This document shows, one piece after another, positions 1 to 25,812 of a stretch of 64,000 nucleotides of DNA. This DNA is from an uncultured bacterium. Lineage in GTDB: Bacteria > Omnitrophota > Omnitrophia > Omnitrophales > Abzuiibacteriaceae. The stretch lies in the NCBI GenBank assembly GCA_964387845.1, contig CAYLXA010000002.1, forward strand, positions 32,001 to 96,000, given 5' to 3'. How positions within the stretch are numbered: the first letter of the stretch is position 1; each line of letters starts with the position of its first letter. Both the position numbers and the translations under genes were made by a program. The notes under the pieces were generated by a model. It was not told the origin of the DNA, ran no database searches, and was given only the letters and a program-made list of their open reading frames with translations.

Positions 1-575
1 AGAAGCGCCATCGCGCCGCACCAAAACGTAATCCAAAAAGCCCTGCCGCCTAAATGACCTGCGTCAATTTGGATCAGCAGCCAAACAGCCATAACGCCGA
101 ACAGAAAAGCGGAGTGGTCATACCAAGGATGCGGAAACCACCAATAAAATCCCACAACGCTCAAAAGAGTGGCGATCAACGTGAGTATCAAAGGCATCCT
201 GCGCTGCGCTATGAAAAAAGTTGCCGCAGCTACGAGCGAGCTGACAGTGATTAAGTGAGTTAAAATCGCAGATTTTCCGAAACCAAGTAAAAAAAAGAAA
301 AAGGCATTCATGTAAAGATGAATTGGGCCCGTTGTGTAGATAAAATCAATATAAGGTTTTTGGCCCTTGTAGATTCTCCAGCTGGCGTCTAGAAATGCGC
401 CATGATCGACCAAATTAAAACCTCGAAATGCAAAATACGCCAGAACGAAAGCGTTGCCCAGAAGGATGAAAGCGAGAATTAGCTTGGCCCTGTTAAGCCG
501 CGTCGGGTCGTTTTTGGGGGAACCGGCAAGAAAATCAATCGTTTCTGTCAGTTTATTTGCTAAAATATTTATCAA
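1..575 (-). CDS. partial polytopic GT-C-type (ArnT/PMT-like) membrane glycosyltransferase; N-terminal ~190 aa in window, rest runs off the left edge
   Basis: Manual reverse-strand translation gives an uninterrupted frame from ~575 to position 1. The product is hydrophobic (…LILAFILLGNAFVLAYFAF…). A first loop (LVDHGAFLDASWRIYKGQKPYIDFIYTTGP) resembles the acidic first periplasmic loop of ArnT/PMT enzymes. The only in-frame start after an upstream TAA is TTG at ~573-575. It is not in the ORF track because it is incomplete. Confidence 0.45.
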   Translation of the reverse strand, partial: MINILANKLTETIDFLAGSPKNDPTRLNRAKLILAFILLGNAFVLAYFAFRGFNLVDHGAFLDASWRIYKGQKPYIDFIYTTGPIHLYMNAFFFFLLGFGKSAILTHLITVSSLVAAATFFIAQRRMPLILTLIATLLSVVGFYWWFPHPWYDHSAFLFGVMAVWLLIQIDAGHLGGRAFWITFWCGAMAL

Positions 576-690
576 TTTTGGCCGTTACTTTCTAAAGGTT
601 TTTAGTTTCAAATATCACAAATAGTGTATCGACATTTACAGCTAAAAGATTACCTGATTCTATGATAGTATTTTATACAATCGTCCATTT

Positions 691-1395
691 ATGAAAATCA
701 CCCTCCTGATTATGACCTGGAACGAAATCGATGGAATGCGTGTGATCATGCCTCAGATCAAGAAAGAGTGGTATGACCAGCTCATCGTGGTTGATGGCGG
801 GTCGACGGACGGAACAATTGAATACGCAAAAGAATGTGGTTACGAAGTATATGTACAGAAACAAAAAGGGTTTCGGCACGCGTATACGGAAGTGATGCCT
901 TATGTTAAAGGTGATGTCATTGTTACTTTTAGCCCGGACGGTAATTCAATTGCCGAGCTGATTCCGGAGCTTAATAAAAAAATGCGCGAAGGCTACGATA
1001 TGGTCATCGTTTCGCGGTATTTGGGGAAAGCAAAAAGCAAGGATGATGATTTGGTGACGGGATTTGGCAATCGGTTATTTACAGGAACCGTAAATTTGCT
1101 TCATGGCGGGCATTATACGGATGCCATGGTGATCTTTCGCGCTTACCGGAAACAGATCGTTTACGATTTAGATTTAGACAAAGAAGAAAGCTATTCGTTT
1201 CCGGAAAAATTATTCAACACCAAAATCAGCTGGGAGCCGCTTTTGTCTGTTCGCGCTGCGAAGCGTAAATTAAAGGTCTCAGAAATTCCGGGCGACGAGC
1301 CGCCGCGAATCGGCGGCGAGAGAAAACTACAAGTACTTAAGTGGGGCGCGGCCTACTATTACCAATTCATCAGCGAAGTGTTTTGTTGGCGTTAA
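691..1395 (+). CDS. family-2 glycosyltransferase (Dpm1-like, soluble)
   Basis: 234-aa ORF. N-terminal GT2 signature (LLIMTWNE…LIVVDGGSTDGT). The size and motif fit a polyprenyl-phosphate sugar synthase-type GT2. Confidence 0.75.
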   Translation: MKITLLIMTWNEIDGMRVIMPQIKKEWYDQLIVVDGGSTDGTIEYAKECGYEVYVQKQKGFRHAYTEVMPYVKGDVIVTFSPDGNSIAELIPELNKKMREGYDMVIVSRYLGKAKSKDDDLVTGFGNRLFTGTVNLLHGGHYTDAMVIFRAYRKQIVYDLDLDKEESYSFPEKLFNTKISWEPLLSVRAAKRKLKVSEIPGDEPPRIGGERKLQVLKWGAAYYYQFISEVFCWR

Positions 1396-1419
1396 ATTAA
1401 CATTGAAGAAAGGAAAAGA

Positions 1420-2355
1420 ATGGCAAAAATCTTGGTAACCGGAGGAGCAGGGTATATCGGATCTGTTTTAGTGCCTACGCTTCTCAAAGAAAAGCATGAA
1501 GTAACCGTGCTTGATAATCTCATGTACCAGCAATCCTCGCTGTTGGATGTTTGTTACGATTCTAATCTCACGGTAGTGCGCGGAGATGCCCGCGATGAAA
1601 AACTGATCGCAGGTCTGGTCAAAACCGTCGATTATATTTTCCCGCTCGCATGTTTGACGGGAGCGCCCCTTTGCGACAAAGATCCTTTCGCGGCCAAAGA
1701 AGTGAACTTAGATGCTATTTTGTTAATTTTAAAACACCGCAGTAAGAATCAGCGCGTAATCTATCCGACGACCAACAGCGGCTACGGAATCGGCCAAAAA
1801 GGAATCCATTGCGATGAAAAAACGCCGCTCAATCCGATTTCGCTCTATGGCAAATTAAAAGTTGAGGCTGAAAAGGCGATTTTGGATTCCGGAAATGCGG
1901 TTACCTTTCGTCTCGCAACGGCGTTCGGCATCAGTCCGCGGATGCGGCTTGATTTGTTGGTGAACGATTTTGTCTACCGAGCGATTAATGACCGTGCTGT
2001 GATTCTTTTTGAAAGTCATTTCAAGCGTAACTATGTCCACGTTCGCGATATTTCGCGAGCATTTGTGCATGCGGTGAATCATTTCGATAAAATGAAAAAC
2101 GAACCGTACAATGTCGGTTTAAGCGACTGCAATTTAAGCAAAAAAGAATTGTGCGATGAAATCAAAAAGCAGGTTCCCAAATTTTATTATGTTGAGTCGG
2201 CAATTGGCGAAGACCCGGATAAACGCGATTACATCGTGAGCAACGAAAAAATCGAGAAAACAGGGTTCAAAACCGAGCATCCGTTGACGGTTGGGATACG
2301 AGAGCTGATCAAGGGGTATCAAGTTATCAAACGGAGTCAATACGGAAACGTTTAA
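1420..2355 (+). CDS. NAD-dependent sugar epimerase/dehydratase (extended SDR)
   Basis: TGGAGYIGS Rossmann motif at the N-terminus. YGKLK matches the YxxxK catalytic motif. Confidence 0.8.
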   Translation: MAKILVTGGAGYIGSVLVPTLLKEKHEVTVLDNLMYQQSSLLDVCYDSNLTVVRGDARDEKLIAGLVKTVDYIFPLACLTGAPLCDKDPFAAKEVNLDAILLILKHRSKNQRVIYPTTNSGYGIGQKGIHCDEKTPLNPISLYGKLKVEAEKAILDSGNAVTFRLATAFGISPRMRLDLLVNDFVYRAINDRAVILFESHFKRNYVHVRDISRAFVHAVNHFDKMKNEPYNVGLSDCNLSKKELCDEIKKQVPKFYYVESAIGEDPDKRDYIVSNEKIEKTGFKTEHPLTVGIRELIKGYQVIKRSQYGNV

Positions 2356-3348
2356 ATGGCGAAATCAACTTCACCAAAAAATAAAGAAATTCTAATCTCG
2401 CTTTATAAAGCGATGCTGAAAATCCGCCGTGCGGAGGAAAAAGTGGCGGAACTTTATCCGTCCGACAAAATCCAAAGCCCGATTCATCTATGCATCGGAC
2501 AGGAGGCTATTTCAGCGGGCGTTTGCCTTGCCATGAAACAGTCAGATCATCTTTATGGAACTTATCGCGGCCACGGTGTTTATTTGGCAAAGGGCGGCAG
2601 CATGAAACAAATGTTTGCCGAGTTGTATGCGAAAGACACGGGTTGTGCGGGCGGTCGCGGCGGCTCCATGCATTTGATTGCGCCCGAAGTTGGCTTGATG
2701 GGATGTTCAGCGATTGTGGCCAGTACGATTCCGCTGGCGGTGGGCGATGCGCTTGCCACAAAGATGCGGAAGAAAAATGATGTAACCGTGACTTTTTTTG
2801 GCGACGGTGCTATCGGCGAAGGCGTTTTCTTTGAAAGTTTGAATTTCGCGGCGTTGAAAAAGCTGCCCGTGGTCTTTGTCTGTGAAAATAACAATTACGC
2901 GGTTCATTCGCGCGTCTCAGACCGCCATAAACAAACCGATCTTTATAAGTACGCGCAGCCTTTCGGAGTTCCGTCTAAACGTTTAGATGGCAATGATGCC
3001 TTGTTAGTTTATGAATCAATGTCGGATGCGATTGCAAAAGCACGGAAGGGCAGCGGTCCTATCTTTATTGAATATATGACCTACCGCATTTATGAACATG
3101 TGGGCCCGTCCAAGGATCATAAAGAGGTGTACCGCGAGACAAAAAAGTTAAAAAATGCCGAAAAAAACGATCCTGTCATTCGATTGGGAAAAGAGCTGCG
3201 TCAAAAATACAAGATTCCTGAATCTGTATTTGCTGAATGGGAATCTGAATTACAGAAAGAGGTCGAGAGCGCGGTCCAGTTCGCAGAAAAAAGTCCGGAG
3301 CCCCCAGCTAGCCGTTTGTACGAGCACATCTATTTGGAGAGATCATGA
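2356..3348 (+). CDS. thiamine-diphosphate-dependent dehydrogenase E1 component, alpha subunit (PDH/acetoin-DH E1alpha-like)
   Basis: YRGHG…GGRGGSMH…FFGDGA…ENNNYA motifs typical of E1 alpha subunits. Start abuts the previous stop. Confidence 0.8.
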   Translation: MAKSTSPKNKEILISLYKAMLKIRRAEEKVAELYPSDKIQSPIHLCIGQEAISAGVCLAMKQSDHLYGTYRGHGVYLAKGGSMKQMFAELYAKDTGCAGGRGGSMHLIAPEVGLMGCSAIVASTIPLAVGDALATKMRKKNDVTVTFFGDGAIGEGVFFESLNFAALKKLPVVFVCENNNYAVHSRVSDRHKQTDLYKYAQPFGVPSKRLDGNDALLVYESMSDAIAKARKGSGPIFIEYMTYRIYEHVGPSKDHKEVYRETKKLKNAEKNDPVIRLGKELRQKYKIPESVFAEWESELQKEVESAVQFAEKSPEPPASRLYEHIYLERS

Positions 3349-4376
3349 GCATTATCAGCTACGGCGAAGCCAATAAACAGGCGCTGACACTGGCGATGGA
3401 ACGCGACCCGAGCGTTTTCTTGATGGGAATCGGTGTAGATGACCACAAGGCCATTTTCGGTAGCGTGCGCGGCATGGTCGAACAGTTCGGCAAAGAGCGT
3501 ATTTTTGATACGCCGATTGCGGAGAGCGGGATGACGGGAATCGCGATTGGCGCCGCGCTAAACGGTATGCGGCCTGTCCATATTCATATCCGCGCCGACT
3601 TTTTATATTTGGCGATGGACCAGCTTTTTAATATTGCAGCGAAGTGGCATGCGATGTTTGGCGGAAAAATGAGCGTTCCGATTGTGATTCGCGCCGTGAT
3701 CGGCCGCAGCTGGGGGCAGGGTGCGCAGCATTCCCAAAGCCCTCAGGCCATGATTGCCCACGTTCCGGGTATTAAATTAGTAATGCCGACCACAGCGTAT
3801 GACGTGAAGGGCTTGCTGCTCAAAGCAATTACCGATCCAAATCCGGTGGTGATGATTGAACATCGCCTGCTTTACGACATTAAAGGAGAGGTGCCGGATG
3901 GTTATTATGAAATTCCATTCGGAAAGGGTGTTGTAAGACGAACCGGAAAGGATGTTACGATTGTCGCAACTTCCTATATGGTTGTTGAGGCATTGAAAGC
4001 TGCCGAATTTTTAACGAATCAGGGAATTGAGGTCGAGATCATTGACCCGCTTACACTGGTTCCGCTGGATGAAGAATTGATTCTGCGATCAGTTCAAAAA
4101 ACCGGCAGAATGCTGGTTGCGGATACCGGCTGGACCAATTGTGGCGTGAGCGCTGAAATTTCCGCGCGTGTTGCAGATCTCGGTTTTTCGTCACTCAAAG
4201 GCCCGATTCGCCGGCTCGGCATGGCGCCCACTGCTTGTCCGGTCAGCAAAGCCCTTGAAAACGCCTTTTATCCAAACGCTAAAACGATTGTCCAGCAAGT
4301 TTGCGAAATGTTGGGCGAGGCGGTTCCAAATGTAGAAGTCCCGCTTTTGGAAAGCAAATTCAAAGGGCCGTTTTAA
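3345..4376 (+). CDS. E1 component beta subunit (transketolase-like)
   Basis: 343-aa ORF. Overlaps the alpha gene by 4 nt, suggesting translational coupling. Transketolase-like Pyr and C-terminal domains characteristic of E1 beta. Confidence 0.8.
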   Translation: MSIISYGEANKQALTLAMERDPSVFLMGIGVDDHKAIFGSVRGMVEQFGKERIFDTPIAESGMTGIAIGAALNGMRPVHIHIRADFLYLAMDQLFNIAAKWHAMFGGKMSVPIVIRAVIGRSWGQGAQHSQSPQAMIAHVPGIKLVMPTTAYDVKGLLLKAITDPNPVVMIEHRLLYDIKGEVPDGYYEIPFGKGVVRRTGKDVTIVATSYMVVEALKAAEFLTNQGIEVEIIDPLTLVPLDEELILRSVQKTGRMLVADTGWTNCGVSAEISARVADLGFSSLKGPIRRLGMAPTACPVSKALENAFYPNAKTIVQQVCEMLGEAVPNVEVPLLESKFKGPF

Positions 4377-5560
4377 TGATTAAATATCATTTAGCTAAAG
4401 ACACAATTGATGAAAAAGATATTCAGGCACTGATTGAGTGGCTTAAATCCTACCCACGGCTCACGAAAGCAAATCTCACGCTTCAATTTGAAGAGCGGTG
4501 GAGCAAATGGCTTGGAAAGAAATATTCAACCTTCTGCAATTCCGGCTCATCCGCAAATTTGTTGATGTATTACGCGCTGCTAAGTTCCAAAAAGCTTAAA
4601 AATAAAAAAGTCGTCGTACCGACTGTTGGATGGGTGACCACCATTGCGCCTGCCATTCAATTCGGCTTTGAGCCGATCATGTGTGAAGCTGATCCCGACA
4701 CTTTTGGCCTTGATTTGGGTCATCTGGAAAAACTTCTCAAGAAGCACAATCCCGGCACGGTAGTGTTGGTACAGGTGCTCGGCGTTCCTCATAAAATGGA
4801 CGAAATTTTGGCGCTTAAGAAAAAATACGACTTCTATTTGTTGGAAGATGCCTGCGCTTCAATCGGTTCCACATATCACGGTAAAAAAATTGGGCAGTTC
4901 GGTGATATGGCAAGCTTTTCGTTCTATTTTGGACATCAAATGTCAACCATCGAAGGCGGTATGGTATCGACGGACAATAAAGAGTTTCAGGATTTATTAT
5001 TGATGCTTCGAAGCCATGGCTGGAGCAAGGATTTAGACGCAAAGACTCATGATGCGCTCGTTGAGCAATATAAAATTGATGACTTTCATACGCCCTTTGT
5101 TTTTTATGAGCCGGGGTTCAATTTGCGCTCAACCGACCTCAACGCATTTCTGGGGCTTCGGCAATTGGACAAGCTCGATTGGATGATTTCGCGGCGTGAT
5201 GAAAATCATAAGCTCTATTATAAACTCTTGGCAAATCAGTTTTACGCTCAGAAATATGCGGATCCAAAAGCAAATGTTTCAAGTATCTCATTTGGTGCTT
5301 TGGCCGCTGATCCGGAAGAGCGGCGCAAGGTCGTGAAGGCTTTGGTGCAGAACGGGATTGAAACCCGGATTTTTTCGGCAGGAAATCTAGGTTTGCATCC
5401 GTTTTGGTATAACCGATACGGAAAAGCGAGCTTTCCGGTTGCCGATAAAGTACACCATTGCGGATTTTTCCTTCCAAATCATCCGTCGCTTGCGACGAAA
5501 GATGTTGAATTTGTGGCGCAGGTAACCTTGGATGCGGTATGCACGGGAAAATCCTCGTAA
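4376..5560 (+). CDS. DegT/ColD/E1-family PMP-dependent sugar 3-dehydratase, with His replacing the catalytic Lys
   Basis: DegT-fold ORF. The ATG at 4376 overlaps the upstream TAA (TAATG); the track's longer start at 4301 is unlikely. The conserved SFYFGHQMSTIEGG segment has His where aminotransferases carry the Schiff-base Lys. The 394-aa size matches ColD-type dehydratases. Confidence 0.65.
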   Translation: MIKYHLAKDTIDEKDIQALIEWLKSYPRLTKANLTLQFEERWSKWLGKKYSTFCNSGSSANLLMYYALLSSKKLKNKKVVVPTVGWVTTIAPAIQFGFEPIMCEADPDTFGLDLGHLEKLLKKHNPGTVVLVQVLGVPHKMDEILALKKKYDFYLLEDACASIGSTYHGKKIGQFGDMASFSFYFGHQMSTIEGGMVSTDNKEFQDLLLMLRSHGWSKDLDAKTHDALVEQYKIDDFHTPFVFYEPGFNLRSTDLNAFLGLRQLDKLDWMISRRDENHKLYYKLLANQFYAQKYADPKANVSSISFGALAADPEERRKVVKALVQNGIETRIFSAGNLGLHPFWYNRYGKASFPVADKVHHCGFFLPNHPSLATKDVEFVAQVTLDAVCTGKSS

Positions 5561-6468
5561 CCGGCGGCACAGGTCTTTTGGGATCAGCGCTTCAAAAGCA
5601 GTGTCCGGATGCGGTTTATGTTGGAAGTAAAGATTATGACTTGAGACGGTTTGATGAGGCTGAGAGGATGTTTGGCGAAATAAAACCAACCCGCGTGATT
5701 CATCTTGCGGCCAATGTGGGTGGGGTGAAGAAAAACGCGGAGCAAAATGCCACACTTTTCTCGGACAATGTTTTAATCAACACCAATGTGATTGAGGCTG
5801 CAATTCAAGGCGGTGTTAAGCGGTTGATTTCAATTTTATCCAGCTGTTGTTTTAAAATTTATCCGGACAAGCCGTCAACAGAGAGCGATTTGCATGAAGG
5901 TGCGCCGTTTGCCGGCAATTTGGGCTATGGTTATGCAAAGCGAATGCTGGACATCCATAGCCGCTTAGCGTGGGAGCAGCATCGGCTGCAGTTTTCATCG
6001 ATCACTCCAGCGACAATGTATGGGCTTAACGATAACTGGGATCTAGAAAGCGGACATGTGGTGGCTGCGTTAATCCGCCGGACGTTTATAGCGAAAGAAA
6101 GGGGCGAGCCGTTGACTGTTTGGGGAAGTGGAAATGCTGTCCGCCAATTTGTCTTAGCAGATGATGTCGCGAGGCTGCTTTTAGAGGAGATTGATACGTT
6201 TGATGGCCCCGACAATATGATCGTAGCACCGGATTCGGGTGTCTCGATACGCGATTTAACAAGCATGATCGCGGAGCTGATGAATTTTAAAGGAGAAATT
6301 ATTTTTGACCAGTCGAAACCGGAGGGACAATTAAAGAGAGTGTTGATCAGTGAGAAATTTAAAAAGCGGTATCCCGAATTTAGCTTTACACCGCTTCGCA
6401 GCGGCTTAAAAATGACCATTGATTGGTTTCTCAAAAACTATAAAACAGCAAGGGTTTTGAAGGTGTGA
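5539..6468 (+). CDS. GDP-L-fucose synthase-like 3,5-epimerase/4-reductase (SDR)
   Basis: LVTGGTGLLGSAL Rossmann motif. SSCCFKIYP and GYGYAK motifs parallel Fcl SSCIYP / YAIAK. Confidence 0.7.
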   Translation: MHGKILVTGGTGLLGSALQKQCPDAVYVGSKDYDLRRFDEAERMFGEIKPTRVIHLAANVGGVKKNAEQNATLFSDNVLINTNVIEAAIQGGVKRLISILSSCCFKIYPDKPSTESDLHEGAPFAGNLGYGYAKRMLDIHSRLAWEQHRLQFSSITPATMYGLNDNWDLESGHVVAALIRRTFIAKERGEPLTVWGSGNAVRQFVLADDVARLLLEEIDTFDGPDNMIVAPDSGVSIRDLTSMIAELMNFKGEIIFDQSKPEGQLKRVLISEKFKKRYPEFSFTPLRSGLKMTIDWFLKNYKTARVLKV

Positions 6469-6469
6469 C

Positions 6470-7516: not shown

Positions 7517-8238
7517 ACAAACGCCTGACCGATCCAGCACACATTGACGTGTTAATTATTTGCGGAGGGCTGGGGACGCGCCTCCGTTCTGTCGAGCCCG
7601 ATGCGCCCAAAGGCATGGTTGTTATTGAAGGAAAACCGTTTCTTGAAATTCTGATTGATCATTTGCGTCATTCCGGTTTTCGGCGTTTTATTCTCTGCAC
7701 CGGTTACGGCGCCAAACGTTTTCGGCAGCATTTTGAAGCGGCCAAACAGTCAGAAATTATATTTTCCGAAGAAGTAAAGCCGCTGGGCACGGCCGGAGCT
7801 GTCAAGCAAGCCGAAAAACTCATAAGCAGCGATCAGCAGTTGGTGTTAAATGGCGATTCTTTGTGCTTGGCGGATTGGCAGGAGCTATTACGCTTTCATG
7901 CATCGCATCAGGGGTTGGCAACGCTTTTGGTAACTCAGGACCGAGAGCGAACGGATGTGGGCGGAATCAAGTTTGATCACAACTTCGGCGTAACGCAATT
8001 TAAAGAAAAGGAAAAAGAATCGACCCCATATATTAATGCGGGTATTTATATTTTTGAGCGCCGGTTATTGGAATTGATTCCGAAAAATCAAAAAATTTCT
8101 TTGGAGGAACAAATTTTTCCAAAGCTGAACGAAACCCAACTGTTTGCTTGCGTATCATTAGCAACTGTGTATGATATTGGAACGCCCGAACGTTTAGAGA
8201 AATTTAAACAACTTTATTCTGCAGGAAAATTCAATTAA
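7513..8238 (+). CDS. sugar-phosphate nucleotidyltransferase, heptose-1-P guanylyltransferase (HddC)-like
   Basis: GTG start. LIICGGLGTRLRS…PK motif of NDP-sugar pyrophosphorylases. Overlaps the kinase by 4 nt. Confidence 0.7.
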   Translation: MNKRLTDPAHIDVLIICGGLGTRLRSVEPDAPKGMVVIEGKPFLEILIDHLRHSGFRRFILCTGYGAKRFRQHFEAAKQSEIIFSEEVKPLGTAGAVKQAEKLISSDQQLVLNGDSLCLADWQELLRFHASHQGLATLLVTQDRERTDVGGIKFDHNFGVTQFKEKEKESTPYINAGIYIFERRLLELIPKNQKISLEEQIFPKLNETQLFACVSLATVYDIGTPERLEKFKQLYSAGKFN

Positions 8239-8243
8239 ACGAT

Positions 8244-10978: not shown

Positions 10979-11002
10979 TGAGATAGTTAACGAGTGGCTT
11001 GT

Positions 11003-14019: not shown

Positions 14020-14043
14020 TTATGCGGTAGTGAGGTGTGTGTG

Positions 14044-17776: not shown

Positions 17777-20700
17777 ATGATTTCCGAAACTACTTCGCCT
17801 TTACCTAATATTAAAACATCGATGAGACCTCGCACGCTGAGCTTGCTCGTCCTATCATTTTTCTTTGTGTCCGGCGCCTGCGGCTTAATGTATCAAGTCG
17901 TGTGGCTTCGGGTGATGGGCCTCGTTTTTGGAAACACGACCTATGCCACCAGTGCGGTACTGTCGGGTTACATGGCGGGATTGGGGCTGGGAGCGCTGTG
18001 CTTCGGCAAGTGGATTGACAAGCCGTCAGCAGGAGATCCGGTTAAGCTTTATGGAATTATGGAGGGCGGAGTCGGAGCTTACGCGCTTTTGACGCCGTTT
18101 ATTTGGTATTTCATCGATTGGATCAACATCGTTTTTTACCGCGCCTTTAATCCCGAATTTCTTCAATTCAGTCTATTCAAATTTGCAGTGTCATTTGTGT
18201 TTTTGTTCATTCCGACATTTTTGATGGGCGGCACGCTGCCGGTGTTAAGCAAATTTTATATAGAGCATCGCGATCAGATTGCGCACAAGGTGGGGATTTT
18301 ATATGCGCTCAATACGGCAGGCGCCGTGCTAGGCGTGATTTTCAGCGGTTTTTTTTGTTTGTATTATTTTGGCGTATGGCAAACCACGGTTTTGACAGCC
18401 GTTCTTAACCTTTTGATTTTTGCCGCATGCTGGTTCTGGATTAAGGGGAATGCTGCGGGCGCTAGCGCTTTGCCGCCCGAAATCGCCGTTCAAGAACTGC
18501 CGGCTCCATCAAAATCGCAGCCAAATGCGTACTATACGACGCTGCTTGTTTTATTTGGGATTTCCGGCGGCGTTTCCATGATGTATGAAATCGGATGGAC
18601 GCGCATACTCGCCATTGTCGTCGGAAGCTCTATCTACGCATTTTCGGTAATGCTGTCGACGTTTCTATTGGGCATCGCCCTCGGCAGCTTTTTGTTCAGC
18701 TGGCTCTCCAAGCGGATCAAAATCGACCTATCCATTTTTGCCACCTTGCAAGCCGCCACTGCATTATTTGCTTTTTTGGGCATGAATCAATTTGAAGAAA
18801 TGCCATACCGCTTTTTAAAGCTCTATCACTGGTCTAAGCACACACCGTTTTTAATCGAGCTTGGAAGATTCGCGCTTTGTACAATCGTTATGCTGGGCCC
18901 GACCATTTGCATCGGCGCCATGTTTGCTTGCTTTATTCATTTGTATCATCAGCAAGAGCGTTTGGGGGGCGATATTGGCACGGCTTATTTTGCGAATACT
19001 GTGGGGACTATTTTTGGTTCGGCGCTGACCGGCTTTTTGATTATCCCAATCCTGGGAATTTACAAAACACTCATGGCCGCCGCCGGATTAAATGCCGCGA
19101 TCGGCGCGATTGCGTTTATGATGAGTTTGCCTAACCGGCAACTCAGGCGGACAATTGCTTTTTCCGTCGTGTTTGTTTTTACTTGGGTTGGTGCTAGCCT
19201 AGCGCGCCCGTGGAATAAATCAGTAATCACAAGCGGGGCGGTGGTTCGTCCGAACATGCATAACGCCAATTCGCAAGAAGAGTTTATCCGGTCTATGGAA
19301 AACCGGCTTAATCTGTTCTATAAGGAAGGGACGAGCGCAACGGTCAGCGTTAACCGAGTGCGCGATGTTATTTCACTCGCAGTGAATGGAAAAACAGATG
19401 CCTCTAACGGAACCGACGCGTTCAATCAATTTTTGCTTGGCCACTTGCCGATGCTGTTAAATCCGGATGCGCAAAAGGTACTTACCATCGGCCTGGGAAG
19501 CGGTTCGACGGTTGCCGCAGTCGCGTCTTACGCGGTCAAACAGATTGATTGCGTCGAACTGGAAGCTGCCGTGGTTGAGGGCGCCAGATTTTTTTCGGAA
19601 CTGAATCGAAATGTGCTAAACGACCCCAGGCTTCGCATGATTGTGAATGACGGCCGCAATTACTTAAAAATCAATCCTACGCTGTATGATGTCATCATTT
19701 CCGAACCTTCAAATCCATGGATGGCCGGTGTCGCTAATTTGTTTTCGCGCGAGCATTACGAAACAATGAAAGCGCGTCTCGCGCCGCAGGGGATCGTGTG
19801 CCAATGGCTTCACGCTTACAGCATGTCCGATCAGGATATGCGTATGATTATTCGAACATTCACGCTGGTATTTCCAAATACAAGTCTATGGACATCGAAT
19901 TATCCTGACCTGCTTCTGCTCGGGTCGAATGAACCGATTGAAATAGATTATCTCGAATTAAAAAAATCCTTTAACCGTCCGGAGGTTTTACAGGATTTTG
20001 AACCCTACGGAATTAAAACAGCGGATGGTTTTCTAGGCGCTTTTTGGCTGGATGACGAAGCGTTGCGTAGTTTTTCCGAAGGAGCCCGAATCAACAGCGA
20101 TAATTACCCCTACCTAGAATTTTCGGCACCGCGCCATTTGTATGACGATACGGTGAGCAGTAATTATCATTTAATCAACGCTTTTGCGTCGAAGCAGTAT
20201 CCAAAAATTAAAAACCTGAATCCTCCGATTGATCAAAATATTGAGTTTCATGTCAATATTGCCAGAAGCAACTTTTACCGGAAAATATACGGGAGGGTCC
20301 AAAGCGAACTTGACTTCATCAAAGAGCTGGATCCTAAAAACCCGGACTTGATCGAAATTTTGGGAATGGTTCAGTATGAGATGGGGAACTTTACAGACGC
20401 AGAGCGGCTGTTATCTGAATCTTTGATTCAAAATCCTGATTCACCCGAAACCCACTTCTACTTTGGATTGATCCAGCAAAGGAAGAAGCGCCACGAAAAT
20501 GCGATATTTTCTTTTGGTGAAGCGATACAGCTCGATTCGCGTGCCGCTAAGTATTACATAGCGCTGGGTGATTCATTGATGGAAATGAATGCGTTTGTCT
20601 CTGCGGTTGATGCTTTTGATCAGGCTTTGATTTATTCGCCTGCCAAGTTTGACTTATTGATTCGGAAGGCTTCCGCTCTCAGCCGTATTGTGCCGATCAA

Positions 20701-21001
20701 CGAGCAAATCAGATTTACGGAAGAGTTGCTTGAAATGTACCCGAAACATGTGGCGCTTTATGAAATGTTGGGAAATCTTTATCAAAATAACCATCAGCGC
20801 GATGACGCGGAAAAAATTTATTTAAGGATGATTCAAGAGTTTCCCCTGGAGCCCAACAGTTATTTGCAGCTCGGCATTTTATACGGCAAGACGGGCTCAA
20901 TGATGAAAGCAAAAGAGCAGCTCAAGAAGGCTGTACGCTATGATCCGGAACTGTTAAAAAACCCTGAAATTCAAAAAGTACTTCAGTATAAAGGTGCCTA
21001 A
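17777..21001 (+). CDS. fused polytopic membrane domain / spermidine-synthase-like aminopropyltransferase domain / C-terminal TPR repeats
   Basis: 1074 aa. About 12 TM helices (aa 1-480). The central segment VLTIGLGSGSTV…DVIISEPSNPW…GIVCQWL matches the SpeE fold motifs GGGDG…D(S/P)xDP. The last ~300 aa are TPR-like repeats. Confidence 0.7.
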   Translation: MISETTSPLPNIKTSMRPRTLSLLVLSFFFVSGACGLMYQVVWLRVMGLVFGNTTYATSAVLSGYMAGLGLGALCFGKWIDKPSAGDPVKLYGIMEGGVGAYALLTPFIWYFIDWINIVFYRAFNPEFLQFSLFKFAVSFVFLFIPTFLMGGTLPVLSKFYIEHRDQIAHKVGILYALNTAGAVLGVIFSGFFCLYYFGVWQTTVLTAVLNLLIFAACWFWIKGNAAGASALPPEIAVQELPAPSKSQPNAYYTTLLVLFGISGGVSMMYEIGWTRILAIVVGSSIYAFSVMLSTFLLGIALGSFLFSWLSKRIKIDLSIFATLQAATALFAFLGMNQFEEMPYRFLKLYHWSKHTPFLIELGRFALCTIVMLGPTICIGAMFACFIHLYHQQERLGGDIGTAYFANTVGTIFGSALTGFLIIPILGIYKTLMAAAGLNAAIGAIAFMMSLPNRQLRRTIAFSVVFVFTWVGASLARPWNKSVITSGAVVRPNMHNANSQEEFIRSMENRLNLFYKEGTSATVSVNRVRDVISLAVNGKTDASNGTDAFNQFLLGHLPMLLNPDAQKVLTIGLGSGSTVAAVASYAVKQIDCVELEAAVVEGARFFSELNRNVLNDPRLRMIVNDGRNYLKINPTLYDVIISEPSNPWMAGVANLFSREHYETMKARLAPQGIVCQWLHAYSMSDQDMRMIIRTFTLVFPNTSLWTSNYPDLLLLGSNEPIEIDYLELKKSFNRPEVLQDFEPYGIKTADGFLGAFWLDDEALRSFSEGARINSDNYPYLEFSAPRHLYDDTVSSNYHLINAFASKQYPKIKNLNPPIDQNIEFHVNIARSNFYRKIYGRVQSELDFIKELDPKNPDLIEILGMVQYEMGNFTDAERLLSESLIQNPDSPETHFYFGLIQQRKKRHENAIFSFGEAIQLDSRAAKYYIALGDSLMEMNAFVSAVDAFDQALIYSPAKFDLLIRKASALSRIVPINEQIRFTEELLEMYPKHVALYEMLGNLYQNNHQRDDAEKIYLRMIQEFPLEPNSYLQLGILYGKTGSMMKAKEQLKKAVRYDPELLKNPEIQKVLQYKGA

Positions 21002-21954
21002 TGGAAAAGTTTAACTATGCGCTGAGTGTTATCGTCCCATTTTTCAATGAAGAACAATCATTGCCGGGAATTATAAAAGGTGCGCAAGCAGTTTTGAGCC
21101 ATTTTTCACAGCAAAGCGAAATCATTTTTGTAGATGACGGCAGTGCGGATGCGGGTATTCAGATTGTCAAAAATGAGGCCAAATCAGATAAGCGTATTAA
21201 ATTGGTAGCGTTCAAAAAAAATTTCGGGCAGACCGCTGCCTGGGCTGCCGGTATTGATCATGCCAAGGGTGACGTTATTGCATTTTTGGATGCGGATTTA
21301 CAAAATGACCCGGCAGACATTCTGATGCTTGCAAAAAAACTTGGCGAAGGTTTTGATGTTATCAGTGGCTGGCGGAAGGACAGAAAGGATAGTCTCTTAA
21401 CGAGGCGCATTCCGTCACAGATCGCAAACTGGCTGATTTCAACCGTTACGGGTGTGCATTTGCATGACTACGGATGCTCTTTGAAGCTCTATCGCGCCGA
21501 AATTTTACGCGGCGTAAAGCTTTATGGAGAAATGCACCGCTTTCTGCCTGCTTACGCGGCTTGGGAAGGTGCGCGGATCACTGAAGTAATCGTCAATCAC
21601 CAAGAGCGGCGGCACGGTGTAAGTAAATACGGATTAGGAAGAATTTCAAAAGTAATCCTGGATCTCACGACCGTTTCTTTTCTGGGCGGTTTTGCGACAA
21701 AGCCTATTTATTTCTTCGGGCGGCTCGGTTTTGTGCTATTCCTTCTTGGTTTGGCGACCTTAGGCCTAGTGGCTTATCGTGTTTTGATTTTACAAAATAA
21801 AGAAGCAACGCCTGCGGTCTTTATGATGGTCGTATTTTTCATCTCTTCAATTCAGCTGATTTTAATGGGGTTGCTTGCTGAAATGGTGATGCGGGTTTAT
21901 CACCAAGGCCAGGAGAGGCCGGTTTATCGGATTTCAGAAAAAATCAATTTTTAA
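21001..21954 (+). CDS. family-2 glycosyltransferase, ArnC/GtrB-like polyprenyl-phosphate sugar synthase with C-terminal TM helices
   Basis: SVIVPFFNEE…FVDDGSAD…DADLQ motifs. Two C-terminal hydrophobic helices as in ArnC/GtrB. Confidence 0.75.
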   Translation: MEKFNYALSVIVPFFNEEQSLPGIIKGAQAVLSHFSQQSEIIFVDDGSADAGIQIVKNEAKSDKRIKLVAFKKNFGQTAAWAAGIDHAKGDVIAFLDADLQNDPADILMLAKKLGEGFDVISGWRKDRKDSLLTRRIPSQIANWLISTVTGVHLHDYGCSLKLYRAEILRGVKLYGEMHRFLPAYAAWEGARITEVIVNHQERRHGVSKYGLGRISKVILDLTTVSFLGGFATKPIYFFGRLGFVLFLLGLATLGLVAYRVLILQNKEATPAVFMMVVFFISSIQLILMGLLAEMVMRVYHQGQERPVYRISEKINF

Positions 21955-21973: not shown

Positions 21974-23875
21974 GTGTGCGGAATCTACGGTTTTATCCAC
22001 CTGTCACAAAATTCCAAAATAGACGCAGGAATCTTAAATCAAATGAGCGGCTCGCTCAGGCATCGCGGGCCAGACGGGGAAGGCGCCTGGGTTGATGGTG
22101 CTGTCGCGTTTGGTCACCGGCGTCTGAAAATCATCGATTTAAGCGATAATGCCCGTCAGCCCATGTCTAACCGGGACGGCAGTATATGGATAACGTTTAA
22201 CGGAGAGATTTATAATTATCAAGATCATATTTCAGCGTTAAAGCAGAAGGGGTATCAATTTAAATCTACCTCAGACACTGAGATTATTTTGCACCTCTAC
22301 GAAGAGCATGGAATTGATTGCTTGAAGCACCTAAACGGGATGTTTGCGTTCGCGATTTGGGACAAGCGCAAAAACGAAGGGTATTTGGTCCGGGACCGTT
22401 TGGGTATTAAACCCCTCCATTATATCGAAGTGAACCGTAAGCTCATTTTTGCATCCGAAATCAAAGCAATTCTGAAGCATCCGGATGTAAGCCGTGAAGT
22501 TGATTTTCAATCGCTCGGTCAATATCTCAGTTTTGACTATGTTCCCGCGCCGAATACGATTTTGAGAAACGTTAAAAAGTTGGAGCCGGGACACTGCCTT
22601 AAGATCAAGCAAGGTTCCGTAGAGAGCATTCAATATTGGTCAGTTTCATATTCCGATCCAATAGAAAAAAAATCCGCAGCTGAATACGCGGAAGCCTTGC
22701 TGGATGTATTAAAAAGATCGGTGCGCCGTCATTTGATCTCCGATGTGCCGCTGGGGGCTTTTTTGAGCGGCGGAATTGACTCAAGTTCAATTTGTGTGCT
22801 GATGCGCGAACTTGGTGTTTCGAAAATCAAAACTTTTCATATCGGATTTGAAGAAGAATCCTTTGACGAAACGAAGTATGCGCGGCAAGTAGCGGCATAC
22901 CTGGGCACGGAGCATCATTCTGAAATTTTATCGGTCACAAAAGCGCGGGATTTGATTCCCGATATGATGGACTTTTTGGATGAGCCTTTTGGGGACGCTT
23001 CGTTTCTTCCAACCCTGCTACTATCCCAATTTACAAAAAAGCATGTGACAGTTTCGCTTAGCGGTGATGGTGGCGATGAAATTTTTGCCGGGTACCCAAC
23101 TTACCAAGCGCATTCGGTTGCTCGTAGTCTTGGCTGGATCCCGAAGTCCGTCTGGCAGCTGATGCGCGGCCTGACATCGCAGCTGCCTGTTTCAGACGAG
23201 AATTTAAGCACCGATTATAAGCTAAAAAAGTTTATCGATGGGATGGAGGAAGAGAATATGATTGCACGGCATTATCGGTGGTTGGGATCTTTTGATCCGA
23301 AAAGCCAGGCCGACTTGCTGTCAGCAGATGTTTGCGCTGCTTTGGGCGCTTTTGATCCGTATCAAATTGCAAAGGAATACGGTAGTGTAACTCGTCCGGA
23401 AGATTGGCTGGGCCGCCTTTTACATTGTGATCAAAGGTTTTATTTACAGGACAATATGCTGGTCAAGATTGACCGCGCAACGATGGCTGCGTCTCTGGAG
23501 GGAAGGGTCCCGTTTTTGGATCATGAAGTGGTTGAATTTGCAACCAAACTGCCGTCAAATTTGAAGTTGAACGGCCTGATAACCAAATACATTCTGAAGA
23601 AAACCATGAAACATCATCTTCCGGATGCCATCATCAACCGGAAGAAAAAGGGTTTTGGAATTCCTGTCGCCAAGTGGTTCAAAGCCGAGTTGAAGCCATT
23701 TTTGAAAGCAATATTTGAGCCGGCCAAAATTAAGCGTGAGGGATTCTTAAATCCGGCAGCCGTATCAAAATTATTAAGCGAGCATTTTGAAGGGAAGTTC
23801 GATCATAGAAAACAAATCTATACACTGCTTAATTTTGAACTTTGGCTTGAGCGGTATATTAGAAAATCGGACTAA
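21974..23875 (+). CDS. asparagine synthase (glutamine-hydrolysing), AsnB-family amidotransferase
   Basis: GTG start directly before Cys (MCGIYG). Ntn glutamine amidotransferase domain plus SGGIDSS PP-loop. 633 aa. Confidence 0.85.
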   Translation: MCGIYGFIHLSQNSKIDAGILNQMSGSLRHRGPDGEGAWVDGAVAFGHRRLKIIDLSDNARQPMSNRDGSIWITFNGEIYNYQDHISALKQKGYQFKSTSDTEIILHLYEEHGIDCLKHLNGMFAFAIWDKRKNEGYLVRDRLGIKPLHYIEVNRKLIFASEIKAILKHPDVSREVDFQSLGQYLSFDYVPAPNTILRNVKKLEPGHCLKIKQGSVESIQYWSVSYSDPIEKKSAAEYAEALLDVLKRSVRRHLISDVPLGAFLSGGIDSSSICVLMRELGVSKIKTFHIGFEEESFDETKYARQVAAYLGTEHHSEILSVTKARDLIPDMMDFLDEPFGDASFLPTLLLSQFTKKHVTVSLSGDGGDEIFAGYPTYQAHSVARSLGWIPKSVWQLMRGLTSQLPVSDENLSTDYKLKKFIDGMEEENMIARHYRWLGSFDPKSQADLLSADVCAALGAFDPYQIAKEYGSVTRPEDWLGRLLHCDQRFYLQDNMLVKIDRATMAASLEGRVPFLDHEVVEFATKLPSNLKLNGLITKYILKKTMKHHLPDAIINRKKKGFGIPVAKWFKAELKPFLKAIFEPAKIKREGFLNPAAVSKLLSEHFEGKFDHRKQIYTLLNFELWLERYIRKSD

Positions 23876-25812
23876 GTTTTCCGAAACGAAGCTGTTGTAA
23901 CGGAATCGTAAAACACCATCAAGATCTCATCAATCGGGATATCGGCCGTCAACTTAGGGTTCAAAATTTCAAATCGACCGTCCGTAACATTAACGAAACC
24001 AAAAGGCGCGATTTCACGGCTTGGCGCGGCAACCTGAACATAAACTTCGTAAATTCCGTCCGGAAATCCATCCCCTTGAATCAAATACCCCTCCTGCGTT
24101 AAACCGCTTTTTGCCGCTGCCTTTGGAAGCGATTCAGAGAAAAATTCATAACCAGTTTCATCTGCTATTCGGGGTTTTGCTGATAGCCGATAGGTATTAA
24201 CCTGCTCAATCAAAAGAGGTGCCTGTGTTTTGGGAATAGATTCCGTGATATAGAGCGTCGGATCACGATTAATAATAATCACATCGCCTTTTTTAATGAA
24301 TTGGTAAGAGCCGGGCCCTAAAACCAGTGGCTCGCTGGGGTTGTTGGCACGTTGCGGTAAATACGTCGTGATGGGCAGGTGATAGACTGGTTTTCCGGTA
24401 TAAAATTCGATCGCGTTACCGTAGAAGTGGTAGATGTATGTGACTTTATCGTTGATGTCAAAAACATAATCTTTGGGATGAATGGTATAGTAAGGCCCGA
24501 CCCAAAAAATACTAGAATTTTGAGACAAGCTTTTTGCGGCCTTGCTGATCTTGCCTGAAAAATCGTTCGAATAAACGGGATCGGCGAATTTTATGCACTC
24601 TGAAAATCCTTTCTGAAGAGGCGAGAAGGCAAACACAAAGCACAGCATGCCCGCAAAAGCATTCTTGATTTGATCCGATTTGATTCTGAGAGCTATAAAT
24701 TGAATAATTGCCAATGCGCCTTTCAGCGTGAAATAAAACACGGGCGGAAAGAGCGGAAACAAATAACGAGCTTCTCTGACGGCAATTACATAAGTTTGAA
24801 ATAGAAAAAAGGCAAAAAACCAAATGATGAAAAATAGTGACAATGGCCGCCTGTCCTTCGCTGACAGAAAAATCCCACCAACAAAAAGGAGATGGAGCGG
24901 AAAAGGAATCGATTTTAATAAAAATACATAGTTCCAGTTCGGGTTTTCCCAGCCTGTATTTTTTTGATACTGCGCAATCAGGTCTTGGACGAATTTCAGA
25001 ATTGACGAGTGCCATGGTGCTAAATCCAAAAGCGTATAGAGCAGGCCGGCCAGTAAGAAATAAACCGTAACCGGCACGATGAATAAAGCGATTAATTTCA
25101 CAAGCAAACCTACTTGTCGAGGCTTGCCCGTGCTCTTGATTTGAAAAACACGGTTAATGATTTCGTAGATAAGAAAAACGCCGAATAGAAACGGAATTAA
25201 GTTGTAGCGGATCCCGATTGCAAACATAGTCAAAATTCCAGCACTCCACAAAAAACCGGCATTTCCGGAGTTTTGACTCTTCCAATATAAATAAAATGCA
25301 GCCGAAGTGAATAAGGTGGCCGCAATGTCTTCTTTGGCAAACGGAGCATAGTGAATTAAGAGCGTATTGCCGGCCAGAAATAGAGTTCCGAGCAGCGCTT
25401 CGGTTTTACCAAATTCAAACCGCAAGAACTTGAAAAACACGAAAAGCAAAAGCAAGAACAAAGCAACGCAGGTCAGATGGACGGTTATCAGCGAGAAGTC
25501 GGGGCTTTGTGCCCATTGCTCTAAAATAAAGATCGGAGAAAGAAGGATCGGAAAAATAAAAGGTCTTTTCCAATAATAAGTCAGCGATTCATCCAATGTC
25601 GCAATTTTTCGGGCGTTGACCAGGGTTTCATAGGCGTCAAAAAAGTCAATTCTAAGGTGAAGCGCAACCCAAAATAGGTATAAGCCGAGAGCGACCAATA
25701 AGGAAACGATAATGAAGTTGATTTTGCTTCGAATGCGGTCTGTAAACGGGAGTGTTGCTTCAGGCAAGTTCAATCGGTGTACCTTTGCTGTTTTCGAAGC
25801 GCTAATCGACAA
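23872..25812 (-). CDS. polytopic GT-C-type membrane glycosyltransferase (ArnT/PMT-like)
   Basis: 646 aa, highly hydrophobic. Early loop DFFDAYETLVNARKIATLDESLTYYWKRPF is GT-C-like. Convergent with asnB, with stop codons overlapping. Confidence 0.6.
   Translation of the reverse strand: MSISASKTAKVHRLNLPEATLPFTDRIRSKINFIIVSLLVALGLYLFWVALHLRIDFFDAYETLVNARKIATLDESLTYYWKRPFIFPILLSPIFILEQWAQSPDFSLITVHLTCVALFLLLLFVFFKFLRFEFGKTEALLGTLFLAGNTLLIHYAPFAKEDIAATLFTSAAFYLYWKSQNSGNAGFLWSAGILTMFAIGIRYNLIPFLFGVFLIYEIINRVFQIKSTGKPRQVGLLVKLIALFIVPVTVYFLLAGLLYTLLDLAPWHSSILKFVQDLIAQYQKNTGWENPNWNYVFLLKSIPFPLHLLFVGGIFLSAKDRRPLSLFFIIWFFAFFLFQTYVIAVREARYLFPLFPPVFYFTLKGALAIIQFIALRIKSDQIKNAFAGMLCFVFAFSPLQKGFSECIKFADPVYSNDFSGKISKAAKSLSQNSSIFWVGPYYTIHPKDYVFDINDKVTYIYHFYGNAIEFYTGKPVYHLPITTYLPQRANNPSEPLVLGPGSYQFIKKGDVIIINRDPTLYITESIPKTQAPLLIEQVNTYRLSAKPRIADETGYEFFSESLPKAAAKSGLTQEGYLIQGDGFPDGIYEVYVQVAAPSREIAPFGFVNVTDGRFEILNPKLTADIPIDEILMVFYDSVTTASFRKT

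Follow-up and report, generated by a model that had tools for sequence, protein, structure and literature searches.

The DNA analysed here is a stretch of 64,000 nucleotides (the window) on contig CAYLXA010000002.1, from an uncultured bacterium of the family Abzuiibacteriaceae (Omnitrophota), and the subject of the analysis is a set of small family 2 glycosyltransferases (GT2s) together with the large polytopic membrane proteins encoded near them. By its open reading frames (ORFs) and their Pfam and NCBIfam matches, the window falls into locus A (1–28.4 kb), a housekeeping stretch (28.5–47 kb) and locus C (47–64 kb). Locus A contains an uninterrupted run of 19 plus-strand genes (691–23875) with a minus-strand unit on either side, the truncated gene at 1–575 and the operon at 28415–23872, and nowhere between 691 and 28416 does an intergenic gap reach 80 nucleotides. 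Five GT2 genes occur among the approximately 55 genes of the window, and four of them are of the DPM1-like type (GT2a to GT2d). The polytopic proteins considered alongside them are numbered M0 to M4; the right end of locus C is formed by one small GT2 (GT2d) and one polytopic protein (M4), and the others lie in locus A. An earlier note on this DNA had described these genes as repeated modules, each pairing a GT2 of the polyprenyl-phosphate-sugar-synthase type with one or two membrane proteins resembling glycosyltransferases of the GT-C fold.

GT2a (691–1395, plus strand, 234 aa), GT2b (17039–17776, plus strand, 245 aa) and GT2d (60109–60849, plus strand, 246 aa) are short, DPM1-like proteins without transmembrane (TM) segments, and GT2c (21001–21954, plus strand, 317 aa) is of the ArnC/GtrB type: it has a DAD motif and, towards its C-terminus, two TM helices. 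The start of GT2b was taken at 17039; the longer start at 16922 is not that of the gene call in contig L001. All four pass the Pfam Glycos_transf_2 model (52.5, 33.6, 108.7 and 86.6 bits for GT2a to GT2d, cut-off 23.3), with E-values of 7e-14 for GT2a and 2.4e-24 for GT2d. The NCBIfam models for AglJ and the dolichyl-phosphate (Dol-P) hexose transferase are the top matches of GT2a (3.9e-21 and 4.2e-18) and are also matched by GT2b (5e-17 and 2.8e-13, with PpgS at 2.9e-8), and GT2d matches AglJ (1.7e-19) and PpgS (5.7e-18). Among solved structures, the Pyrococcus Dol-P-mannose synthase PfDPMS is the top PDB match of GT2a (5mlz, 1.6e-7, followed by ArnC and GtrB), the sole match of GT2b (1.6e-12) and the best match of GT2d (8.2e-14). 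GT2c matches ArnC (2.5e-53) and GtrB (1.5e-38) in the PDB over its full length, and its leading NCBIfam models are ArnC (8.3e-61) and, as second best, PgfS (2e-42); hydropathy places its TM segments at residues 245–263 and 273–291, equivalent to the C-terminal hairpin of ArnC and GtrB. The fifth GT2 of the window, at 54533, serves as an internal control and matches HpnB, PgaC and TuaG-type models; the models for AglJ, the Dol-P-hexose transferase, PpgS and ArnC are not among its matches.

A MAFFT alignment and, for GT2d, the alignment with PfDPMS show how the DxD(LQ) position varies. It reads DADLQ in GT2c (FLDADLQNDP), SPDGN in GT2a and AGNNKD in GT2b (AGNNKDNP), where no clear DxD motif is found, while HPDYQ in GT2d (HPDYQYTP) aligns with the DADLQ of PfDPMS (DADLQHPP); the second aspartate is retained in three of the four proteins and the first in GT2c alone. 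By hydropathy, the C-termini of GT2a, GT2b and GT2d are short and hydrophobic or amphipathic, which is compatible with DPM1-like monotopic enzymes without being proof of them. By the ranking of best hits, assignment to the polyprenyl-phosphate-sugar synthase type is supported, with caveats, for all four GT2s, and this part of the earlier description agrees with the best NCBIfam and PDB matches and with the different behaviour of the control.

The membrane proteins M1 and M4 match no Pfam or NCBIfam model, and it was for want of such matches that they were chosen for structure prediction. M4 (60853–62499, plus strand, 548 aa) is predicted to have a GT-C fold with a small C-terminal alpha/beta domain, and its AlphaFold2 model (pLDDT 92.9, pTM 0.92) contains short helices at residues 38–46 and 50–53 in the loop after TM1. 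In a Foldseek comparison of this model with the PDB, the top 35 matches were all GT-C enzymes, including STT3 (8.6e-7), DPY19, ArnT (6.5e-6), PglB, AftD, Pmt4 and ALG9, and transporters of the major facilitator superfamily (MFS) appeared solely at TM-scores near 0.12. Homologues of M4 numbered three by word search and 490 by profile hidden Markov model. Among 59 family members, 15 match PMT_2 and 14 match TMEM260-like (E ≤0.01), and one gives a weak EpsG match (0.0068); the family profile matches the solved TMEM260 O-mannosyltransferase (9rql) at 1.7e-9, placing the family as a remote relative of TMEM260 and PMT_2. In the first loop, at least 90% of the 59 homologues share the aspartate D37.

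M1 (11965–14019, plus strand, 684 aa) combines a predicted GT-C fold with a C-terminal beta-sandwich resembling CBM66 and lectins (residues ~455–684; CBM, carbohydrate-binding module). Its AlphaFold2 model, built from a shallow alignment (pLDDT 80, pTM 0.80), has about 13 TM helices, with short helices at residues 32–43 and 47–55 in the loop after TM1. Fold comparison alone resolved this protein, as the link to solved structures by sequence failed (best match a CBM66 levanase, E 0.14); ArnT is among the fold matches of M1, as it is for M4. The M1 family is rare, with 13 hits among 5.8 billion clusters, and a scan of genome contigs found only distant relatives, in metagenome-assembled genomes (MAGs) of Acidobacteriota and Leptospiraceae. 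Across 12 homologues, P30, R31, D33, D67, R72 and P73 of the loop after TM1 are invariant, the first three forming a P30-R31-x-D33 motif. The M1 and M4 families are remote homologues of one another (hhalign probability 95%, E 2e-8), and D33 of M1 and D37 of M4 are candidate catalytic acidic residues of the first extracytoplasmic loop. The possibility that such proteins are transporters or polymerases and ligases of the Wzy/WaaL type, examined on these two Pfam-less proteins, was not borne out, their fold matches being GT-C enzymes: no Wzy or WaaL structure was found among the fold matches of M1 and M4, and none of the membrane proteins has a Pfam match to the Wzy_C/O-antigen ligase family.

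M2 and M3 can be placed by sequence. M2 (14035–15963, plus strand, 642 aa, or 639 aa from the called start at 14044) is a polytopic GT-C protein of the PMT_2 family (Pfam 1.5e-8, 35.4 bits, cut-off 26.1), with an NCBIfam match below the cut-off to the LA_3751/LA_3752 putative glycosyltransferase family (1.8e-7). Its PMT_2 match begins at residue 201, corresponding to profile position 44, and the candidate catalytic loop, NTWDSLTYH (around residue 128), lies behind the fourth hydrophobic segment rather than the first; the protein seems to carry about three additional N-terminal TM helices relative to typical PMT_2 proteins. M3 (23872–25812, minus strand, 646 aa, or 633 aa from the called start), the final gene of the minus-strand operon, is a PMT/PMT_2 GT-C protein with a C-terminal extramembrane region of approximately 250 aa. 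It matches PMT_2 (6.2e-6, 26.9 bits, cut-off 26.1) and PMT (8e-6, 26.0 bits, cut-off 22.7), aligns to the M4 family with an hhalign probability of 90%, and has the sequence IDFFDAYE (with D56, D59 and E61) in the loop after TM1. A crude Kyte-Doolittle scan gives each of M1 to M4 about 7–10 or more hydrophobic segments.

Of the remaining polytopic protein, M0 (1–575, minus strand), six-frame translation gives the N-terminal ~190 aa; its gene is cut by the left edge of the window and is transcribed divergently from GT2a. It has at least four hydrophobic segments and shares a loop motif, FRGFNxxDxGxFxDxSWRxxxGQxPYxDF, with three fragmentary homologues, the only ones found. The proposal that all five polytopic proteins are GT-C-like is sustained for M1 to M4, by Pfam, profile or predicted fold, and not for M0. 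The acidic first loop attributed to these proteins is seen in M1 (D33), M4 (D37) and M3 (IDFFDAYE); in M2 the candidate for it lies behind the fourth hydrophobic segment.

Each DPM1-like GT2 lies no more than one gene from a polytopic protein. GT2d and M4 are directly adjacent, GT2c is separated from M3 (on the opposite strand) by one gene for an AsnB-like protein, and GT2b is one oxidoreductase gene away from M2 and abuts the gene for a 1074-aa membrane protein at 17777. No GT2 lies beside M1 in the window. Orthologues of GT2a, the short-chain dehydrogenase/reductase (SDR) gene at 10994 and M1 are, however, contiguous in that order in L002 (a JGI metagenome contig) and belong to one cluster in L003 (an ENA contig) and L009 (a Leptospiraceae MAG, JACKPA010000011), with GT2a orthologues 45–52% identical to the window protein; because this linkage is conserved in all three, GT2a is likely to have as its partner M1, which lies in the same operon 10 kb further downstream, and/or M0, which is divergent from it.

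Conservation of gene order extends to the other membrane proteins. An orthologue of M2 (59% identical) occupies the same position in L002, and one of M3 (54%), the single metagenome match, does so in L016, where the decarboxylase and dehydrogenase genes of its operon are also syntenic; L016 was rejected as independent support for the linkage within this operon, since it shares its contig with L002 and that contig, fully syntenic, belongs to a close relative. The order GT2d–M4–GT4 is kept in L011 (a second JGI metagenome contig) and L012, and in L011 the GT2d orthologue is 85% identical and the M4 orthologue only 35%. The L011 copy of GT2d (46–621), in which the N-terminal ~70 residues are replaced or interrupted by stop codons, may represent a pseudogene or an error of assembly. 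In L010, a GT2c orthologue is again paired with an AsnB-like gene.

More small GT2s lie directly upstream of PMT_2 or unassigned polytopic genes in L002 and L003. Within 22 kb, L003 encodes four small GT2s, two YfhO proteins, two PMT_2 proteins and a weak PMT_2 match, an M1 orthologue, another, unassigned polytopic protein and a fusion of spermidine-synthase (SpeE) and tetratricopeptide repeat (TPR) domains, and in L009 six polytopic genes follow one another, a YfhO and a second M1-like protein among them; in both, YfhO-type proteins share clusters with M1 orthologues. The four GT2 genes and the full-length polytopic ORFs are present in the window where they had been described, and as the pairings recur in independent contigs their co-location is real and more than chance. 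The modules as first drawn hold in part: GT2d and M4 are neighbours, GT2a is linked to M1 by context, and GT2b is linked to the oxidoreductase and the 1074-aa protein and not to a GT-C protein. The view that so many modules within 64 kb is unusual is not supported by comparison with the related metagenome and Leptospiraceae MAG loci, which are equal or denser, and the cluster is rich but not unprecedented.

Recent duplication was rejected as the origin of the modules, as no similarity was found among M0 to M4 (phmmer, E<1) and GT2a, GT2b and GT2d are only 23–24% identical to GT2c. The modules are mutually divergent, as the suggestion that each transfers a different sugar would have it, but are not close paralogues, so that 'repeated' applies to them only loosely; comparison of the sequences points to distinct synthases and distinct GT-C families gathered together, an arrangement that fits different donors or acceptors.

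GT2b belongs to the best-conserved unit of locus A. The first of its three genes (16032–17042, plus strand) encodes a GFO/IDH/MocA oxidoreductase, assigned by Pfam, that resembles UDP-GlcNAc 3-dehydrogenase (NCBIfam NF040723, 2.6e-58, 198 bits, cut-off 450); its stop is overlapped by the start of GT2b, whose own stop abuts the start of the third gene (17777–21001, plus strand). This last encodes the 1074-aa fusion protein, with an MFS-like membrane domain (residues ~1–500), a spermidine-synthase-fold domain (~530–715) and TPRs (~850–1060). Support for the SpeE-fold and TPR assignments comes from Pfam (Spermine_synth 7.6e-23, and TPRs) and the PDB (spermidine synthase SPDS, 2e-15), and the protein exceeds the cut-off of the NCBIfam 'fused MFS/spermidine synthase' model (NF037959, 119.5 bits, cut-off 40). 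Its N-terminal domain has no PDB match by sequence and is internally duplicated (residues 22–214 against 255–442, E 1.4e-18), as is typical of transporters. In SpeE enzymes, GGGDGG is the binding signature for decarboxylated S-adenosylmethionine and DSxDP contains the catalytic and amine-binding aspartates. Aligned with Arabidopsis thaliana SPDS1, the fusion protein reads GLGSGS at the GGGDGG position and EPSNP at that of DSSDP, and because these signature residues are replaced it is unlikely to be a normal aminopropyltransferase. It was also considered as a hidden GT-C protein and rejected, with hhalign probabilities of at most 1.2% against both GT-C profiles and the transporter-type internal duplication.

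The three proteins of this unit are 84, 80 and 73% identical to their counterparts in L002 and 69, 59 and 47% in L003. Their gene order is kept in L002/L016 and L003, and in the relatives the fusion gene always adjoins GT2b. One possibility is that the 1074-aa protein flips or presents a lipid-linked sugar. As a speculation to which we give little credence, the unit might even be a previously undescribed extracytoplasmic modification module that operates without a GT-C protein, in which GT2b would make a lipid-phosphate-linked 3-keto- or aminosugar, the MFS-like domain would flip it, and the degenerate SpeE-fold and TPR domains would bind or process the acceptor. To our knowledge, no function has been shown for the widespread 'fused MFS/spermidine synthase' class. 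Nothing specific was found in the literature on the MFS/SpeE/TPR fusion or on surveys of multi-GT-C loci.

The genes between GT2a and M1 form a ten-gene sugar-nucleotide block (1420–11968, plus strand), assigned by Pfam and NCBIfam. It comprises three SDR epimerase/dehydratases (1420, 5539 and 10994), the alpha and beta subunits of a thiamine-pyrophosphate (TPP) enzyme resembling pyruvate dehydrogenase E1 (2356 and 3345, spanning 2356–4376), a DegT aminotransferase related to ArnB (4301–5560, 122 bits), an HddA-like GHMP sugar kinase (6470), a nucleotidyltransferase (7513), and a B12-radical SAM enzyme (8244) and a DAO-type FAD oxidoreductase (9791), which together span 8244–10978; all are on the plus strand. 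L002 keeps the orthologues of the genes at 5539–11968 in synteny, and L003 and L009 do so in part. Because antibiotic deoxysugar pathways have similar enzyme sets, the combination of the TPP pair, DegT, B12-radical SAM and DAO enzymes suggests a C-branched and/or C-methylated amino sugar.

Further enzymes lie at the right of locus A. The last gene of the plus-strand operon (21974–23875) encodes an AsnB-type glutamine amidotransferase (Pfam Asn_synthase 2e-105), which scores 607 bits against the XrtA/PEP-CTERM-system amidotransferase model TIGR03108 (cut-off 817). On the minus strand, genes for a saccharopine-dehydrogenase-like protein (26964–28415) and a pyridoxal-phosphate-dependent decarboxylase of the Orn/DAP/Arg family (25802–26956), both assigned by Pfam, lie upstream of M3 with near-zero spacing. 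The first NCBIfam matches of the decarboxylase are the LysA-like and exosortase-A-associated decarboxylase models, both below their cut-offs. A carboxynorspermidine pathway was considered for this pair and set aside, as other decarboxylase models ranked first and the dehydrogenase has no NCBIfam match at E ≤1e-10. Models from XrtA/PEP-CTERM exosortase exopolysaccharide systems are best or high-ranking for three proteins of locus A (TIGR03108 for 21974, TIGR03099 for 25802 and the PrsT TPR model TIGR02917 for 17777), all below the cut-off, and the window showed neither an exosortase nor a PEP-CTERM protein.

Locus C is a conventional polysaccharide cluster of the O-antigen or exopolysaccharide type (47203–60112). 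Pfam assigns to it two UDP-sugar dehydrogenases, RmlD-like and other SDR enzymes, the ordinary GT2 at 54533, GT4 glycosyltransferases at 55558 (minus strand), 56898 and 58805, and a methyltransferase at 58032. Downstream of M4 follow a further GT4 gene (62478–63626, plus strand, Pfam Glycos_transf_1 6e-30) and, directly after it, a membrane-protein ORF (63610–64000) with at least two hydrophobic segments that runs off the right edge of the window. The housekeeping stretch that separates the two loci encodes NadE, Ogt, ArgRS, MiaA, HflX, a NUDIX protein, a deoxyhypusine-synthase-like protein, RpoN, AccD, an ABC ATPase, two GGDEF proteins, transaldolase and LptD. LptD shows that the source organism is a diderm. 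The deoxyhypusine-synthase-family protein (35411–36532) scores about equally against the models for deoxyhypusine synthase and 1,9-bis(guanidino)-5-aza-nonane synthase, both below the cut-off; the protein, encoded among housekeeping genes, hints at an unusual polyamine metabolism. The two GGDEF diguanylate cyclase genes, one of them with a GAF domain, are adjacent (41208–44095) and lie between the two glycan loci.

From the family and fold assignments, the gene order and the conserved pairing, we infer that the window holds two glycan loci built on a route of extracytoplasmic glycosylation that couples lipid-phosphate-sugar synthases to GT-C glycosyltransferases, an account we hold to be likely, with room for doubt. 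The cytoplasmic enzymes of locus A (the 1420–11968 block, the GFO/IDH/MocA oxidoreductase and the AsnB-like protein) would make one or more unusual nucleotide sugars. Each of GT2a to GT2d would then load undecaprenyl (polyprenyl) phosphate, at the membrane's inner face, with one monosaccharide taken from a nucleotide sugar, the resulting lipid-phosphate sugars would be flipped to the periplasmic face by a component not found in the window, and at least four GT-C-fold enzymes (M1 to M4) would use the flipped donors on periplasmic acceptors. The coupling of the second and last steps is consistent with the linkage of GT2 and GT-C genes in other genomes, which is conserved for GT2d and M4 in L011 and L012 and for GT2a and M1 in L002, L003 and L009.

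The architecture and position of the GT-C proteins bear on the question of their acceptors. The lectin- or CBM66-like domain in the predicted structure of M1 suggests that this protein binds a glycan acceptor, and the location of M4 within a GT4-based polysaccharide cluster suggests, by analogy with GtrC-type enzymes, that M4 may decorate that polymer after its assembly; together, these two features favour glycan acceptors. No GT-B or other cytoplasmic chain-building glycosyltransferase is encoded in locus A, all of whose glycosyltransferases are synthase-like GT2s or GT-Cs. The GT-Cs of locus A would therefore either decorate a polymer encoded elsewhere or assemble a short periplasmic glycan step by step, in the manner of mycobacterial mannan and arabinan.

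Several observations weigh against this account of the two loci. None of the four GT2s reaches the NCBIfam equivalog cut-off of a named synthase (ArnC, AglJ, PpgS or PgfS), with GT2c at 205.7 bits against a cut-off of 529 for ArnC and the other three at 62–76 bits against cut-offs of 325–375, and because all four fall below these cut-offs none should be named ArnC, GtrB or AglJ. The canonical DxD motif is absent from GT2a, GT2b and GT2d, the same three that have no TM segments, and what aligns with solved synthases in these three is for the most part the generic GT-A core (E 1e-7 to 1e-14). The membrane protein that accompanies GT2b is not a GT-C protein, and no comparison places M0 among the GT-Cs: it has no Pfam or PDB match and an hhalign probability of 6–12% against the M4 family, every comparison being negative or underpowered, so that it is a candidate at most. 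As L002/L016 derives from a close relative, the synteny found there counts for little as evidence of functional linkage. Finally, Pfam scans of the window found no flippase of the GtrA, SMR (ArnE/F), MATE, Wzx or LPG_synthase_TM type, and no small multi-TM ORF was seen apart from the annotated genes. The sole transporter-like element in the window is the membrane domain of the 1074-aa protein. Candidate flippases do occur in relatives, as a GtrA-like protein in L011 and an LPG_synthase_TM protein in L009. The latter, a 335-aa protein resembling the MprF flippase (L009, 16236–17243), adjoins the GT2a orthologue and is a candidate flippase for lipid-phosphate sugars with no counterpart in the window.

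An alternative that shares the synthases and GT-C proteins is protein O-glycosylation, in which GT-Cs like PMT, TMEM260 or TMTC would transfer polyprenyl-phosphate-linked sugars to serine or threonine residues of periplasmic or outer-membrane proteins. The PMT and TMEM260 affinities of the GT-Cs described above speak for this alternative. However, PMT_2 also holds transferases of the ArnT type that act on lipid A and glycans, and ArnT is among the fold matches of both M1 and M4. In addition, M1 carries a domain of the carbohydrate-binding type, M4 is located inside a GT4-based polysaccharide cluster, the TPR domain belongs to the protein that is not a GT-C, and no candidate gene for a Ser/Thr-rich acceptor was seen. 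Protein acceptors thus appear unlikely, though not so unlikely as to be disregarded.

It is also conceivable that GT2a, GT2b and GT2d are ordinary cytoplasmic GT-A transferases acting on undecaprenyl-diphosphate oligosaccharides or soluble acceptors, and that their proximity to polytopic proteins reflects nothing more than the clustering of envelope genes. Their lack of TM segments and of a canonical DxD, the missed curated cut-offs and the modest E-values to solved synthases would all be accommodated in this way. Soluble or monotopic DPM1-type synthases are known, however, human DPM1 among them, and the DPM1-like clade is consistently at the top of the matches, which span about 200 of the 213–293 profile positions. 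The control GT2 at 54533 behaves differently in the same searches, and unrelated contigs also pair a GT2 with a polytopic protein. For these reasons we regard a purely cytoplasmic role of the three short GT2s as distinctly improbable. A modification of lipid A or the lipopolysaccharide core of the Arn type, in which GT2c and a GT-C would add a cationic or amidated sugar to lipid A, is very improbable despite the ArnC matches of GT2c, ArnT among the structural matches, the ArnB-related DegT aminotransferase (122 bits) and the diderm envelope indicated by LptD, as GT2c scores far below the ArnC cut-off (205.7 bits against 529), the window has no ArnA (formyltransferase/decarboxylase), ArnD, ArnE or ArnF, no GT-C matches an ArnT model, and this reading would account for no more than one module in four.

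The synthase and GT-C route to extracytoplasmic glycans is textbook in its general mechanism and would not surprise a specialist. If the assignments are right, an uncultured diderm uses a 19-gene operon to make exotic sugars, load them onto lipid and attach them outside the cytoplasm via several unrelated GT-Cs, and the sugars of locus A are, by analogy with known pathways, probably amino, C-branched and/or C-methylated. Such an operon would, if this is true, amount to a compact natural toolkit of donors and transferases for glycoengineering. As no Pfam or NCBIfam model covers the M1 and M4 families, their characterisation would add to the known GT-C families; that of M1, with its GT-C and CBM66-like domains, could be the founder of a new GT-C family in CAZy, and M1 would join the GT-Cs that are guided by a lectin module. 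Through its conserved association with a DPM1-like GT2, the MFS-like/SpeE-like/TPR fusion gives a concrete handle on the 'fused MFS/spermidine synthase' class.

Of the characterised systems, the glucosylation of O-antigen by Gtr proteins in Shigella, Salmonella and their phages, by the flippase GtrA, the undecaprenyl-phosphate-glucose synthase GtrB and the serotype-specific GT-C protein GtrC, also places a GT2 synthase beside a GT-C. GT2c has the GtrB architecture of a GT-A domain with two C-terminal TM helices, and GT2d and M4 lie within a polysaccharide cluster and differ strongly in conservation, the synthase being far more conserved than the GT-C (85% against 35%). A conserved GtrB and a variable GtrC are likewise found in gtr clusters. 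Unlike the Gtr systems, the window has no GtrA gene, three of its four synthases are short proteins devoid of TM segments, its GT-Cs belong to PMT_2 or are unassigned, and several modules are chained in one operon. The ArnC/ArnT system, which with ArnD and ArnE/F adds 4-amino-4-deoxy-L-arabinose to lipid A, is comparable in that ArnC proteins are the closest solved relatives of GT2c and ArnT occurs among the folds matched by M1 and M4, but the ArnC cut-off is missed, ArnA, ArnD, ArnE and ArnF are absent from the window and no GT-C matches an ArnT model.

The Gram-positive systems CsbB/GtcA/YfhO, GtlA/GtlB and PgfS/PgfM1/PgfE/PgfM2 follow the same three-part logic, and the parallels extend to PgfS as second-best match of GT2c, to the YfhO-type GT-Cs near M1 orthologues in L003 and L009 and to the epimerase genes interleaved in the manner of PgfE; in contrast, the window has no YfhO or GtcA, and the acceptors in those systems are the teichoic acids, rhamnan and adhesins of monoderms. 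In the periplasmic glycans of mycobacteria and corynebacteria (Ppm1/PpgS with PimE, Mpt, Emb and Aft), several GT-Cs similarly draw on polyprenyl-phosphate monosaccharides, and some of them carry appended carbohydrate-binding modules (Emb and AftD there, the CBM66-like domain of M1 here). PpgS is among the best NCBIfam matches of GT2d and GT2b, and locus A, too, is without chain-building glycosyltransferases. The differences are the diderm envelope with LptD and the absence of sequence membership of the window's GT-Cs in the Emb, Aft or PimE families.

The three-component paradigm is widespread, and loci with multiple GT-Cs, as well as GT-Cs with appended CBMs, have been described (PMC11127046; PMC8035078). 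In the GT136 pentofuranose system of Citrobacter youngae O1, a CBM-bearing GT-C adds side-chain sugars to a finished polysaccharide, and related loci with several GT-Cs are known (PMC11127046). That system uses a synthase dependent on phosphoribosyl pyrophosphate in place of the GT2, together with a MATE flippase, neither of which is encoded in the window; its GT-C has a C-terminal CBM, and M1 a predicted CBM66-like domain. The kind of system is already known, and what is new here is the presence of two GT-C families without a database model and the conserved association of GT2b with the MFS/SpeE/TPR fusion protein.

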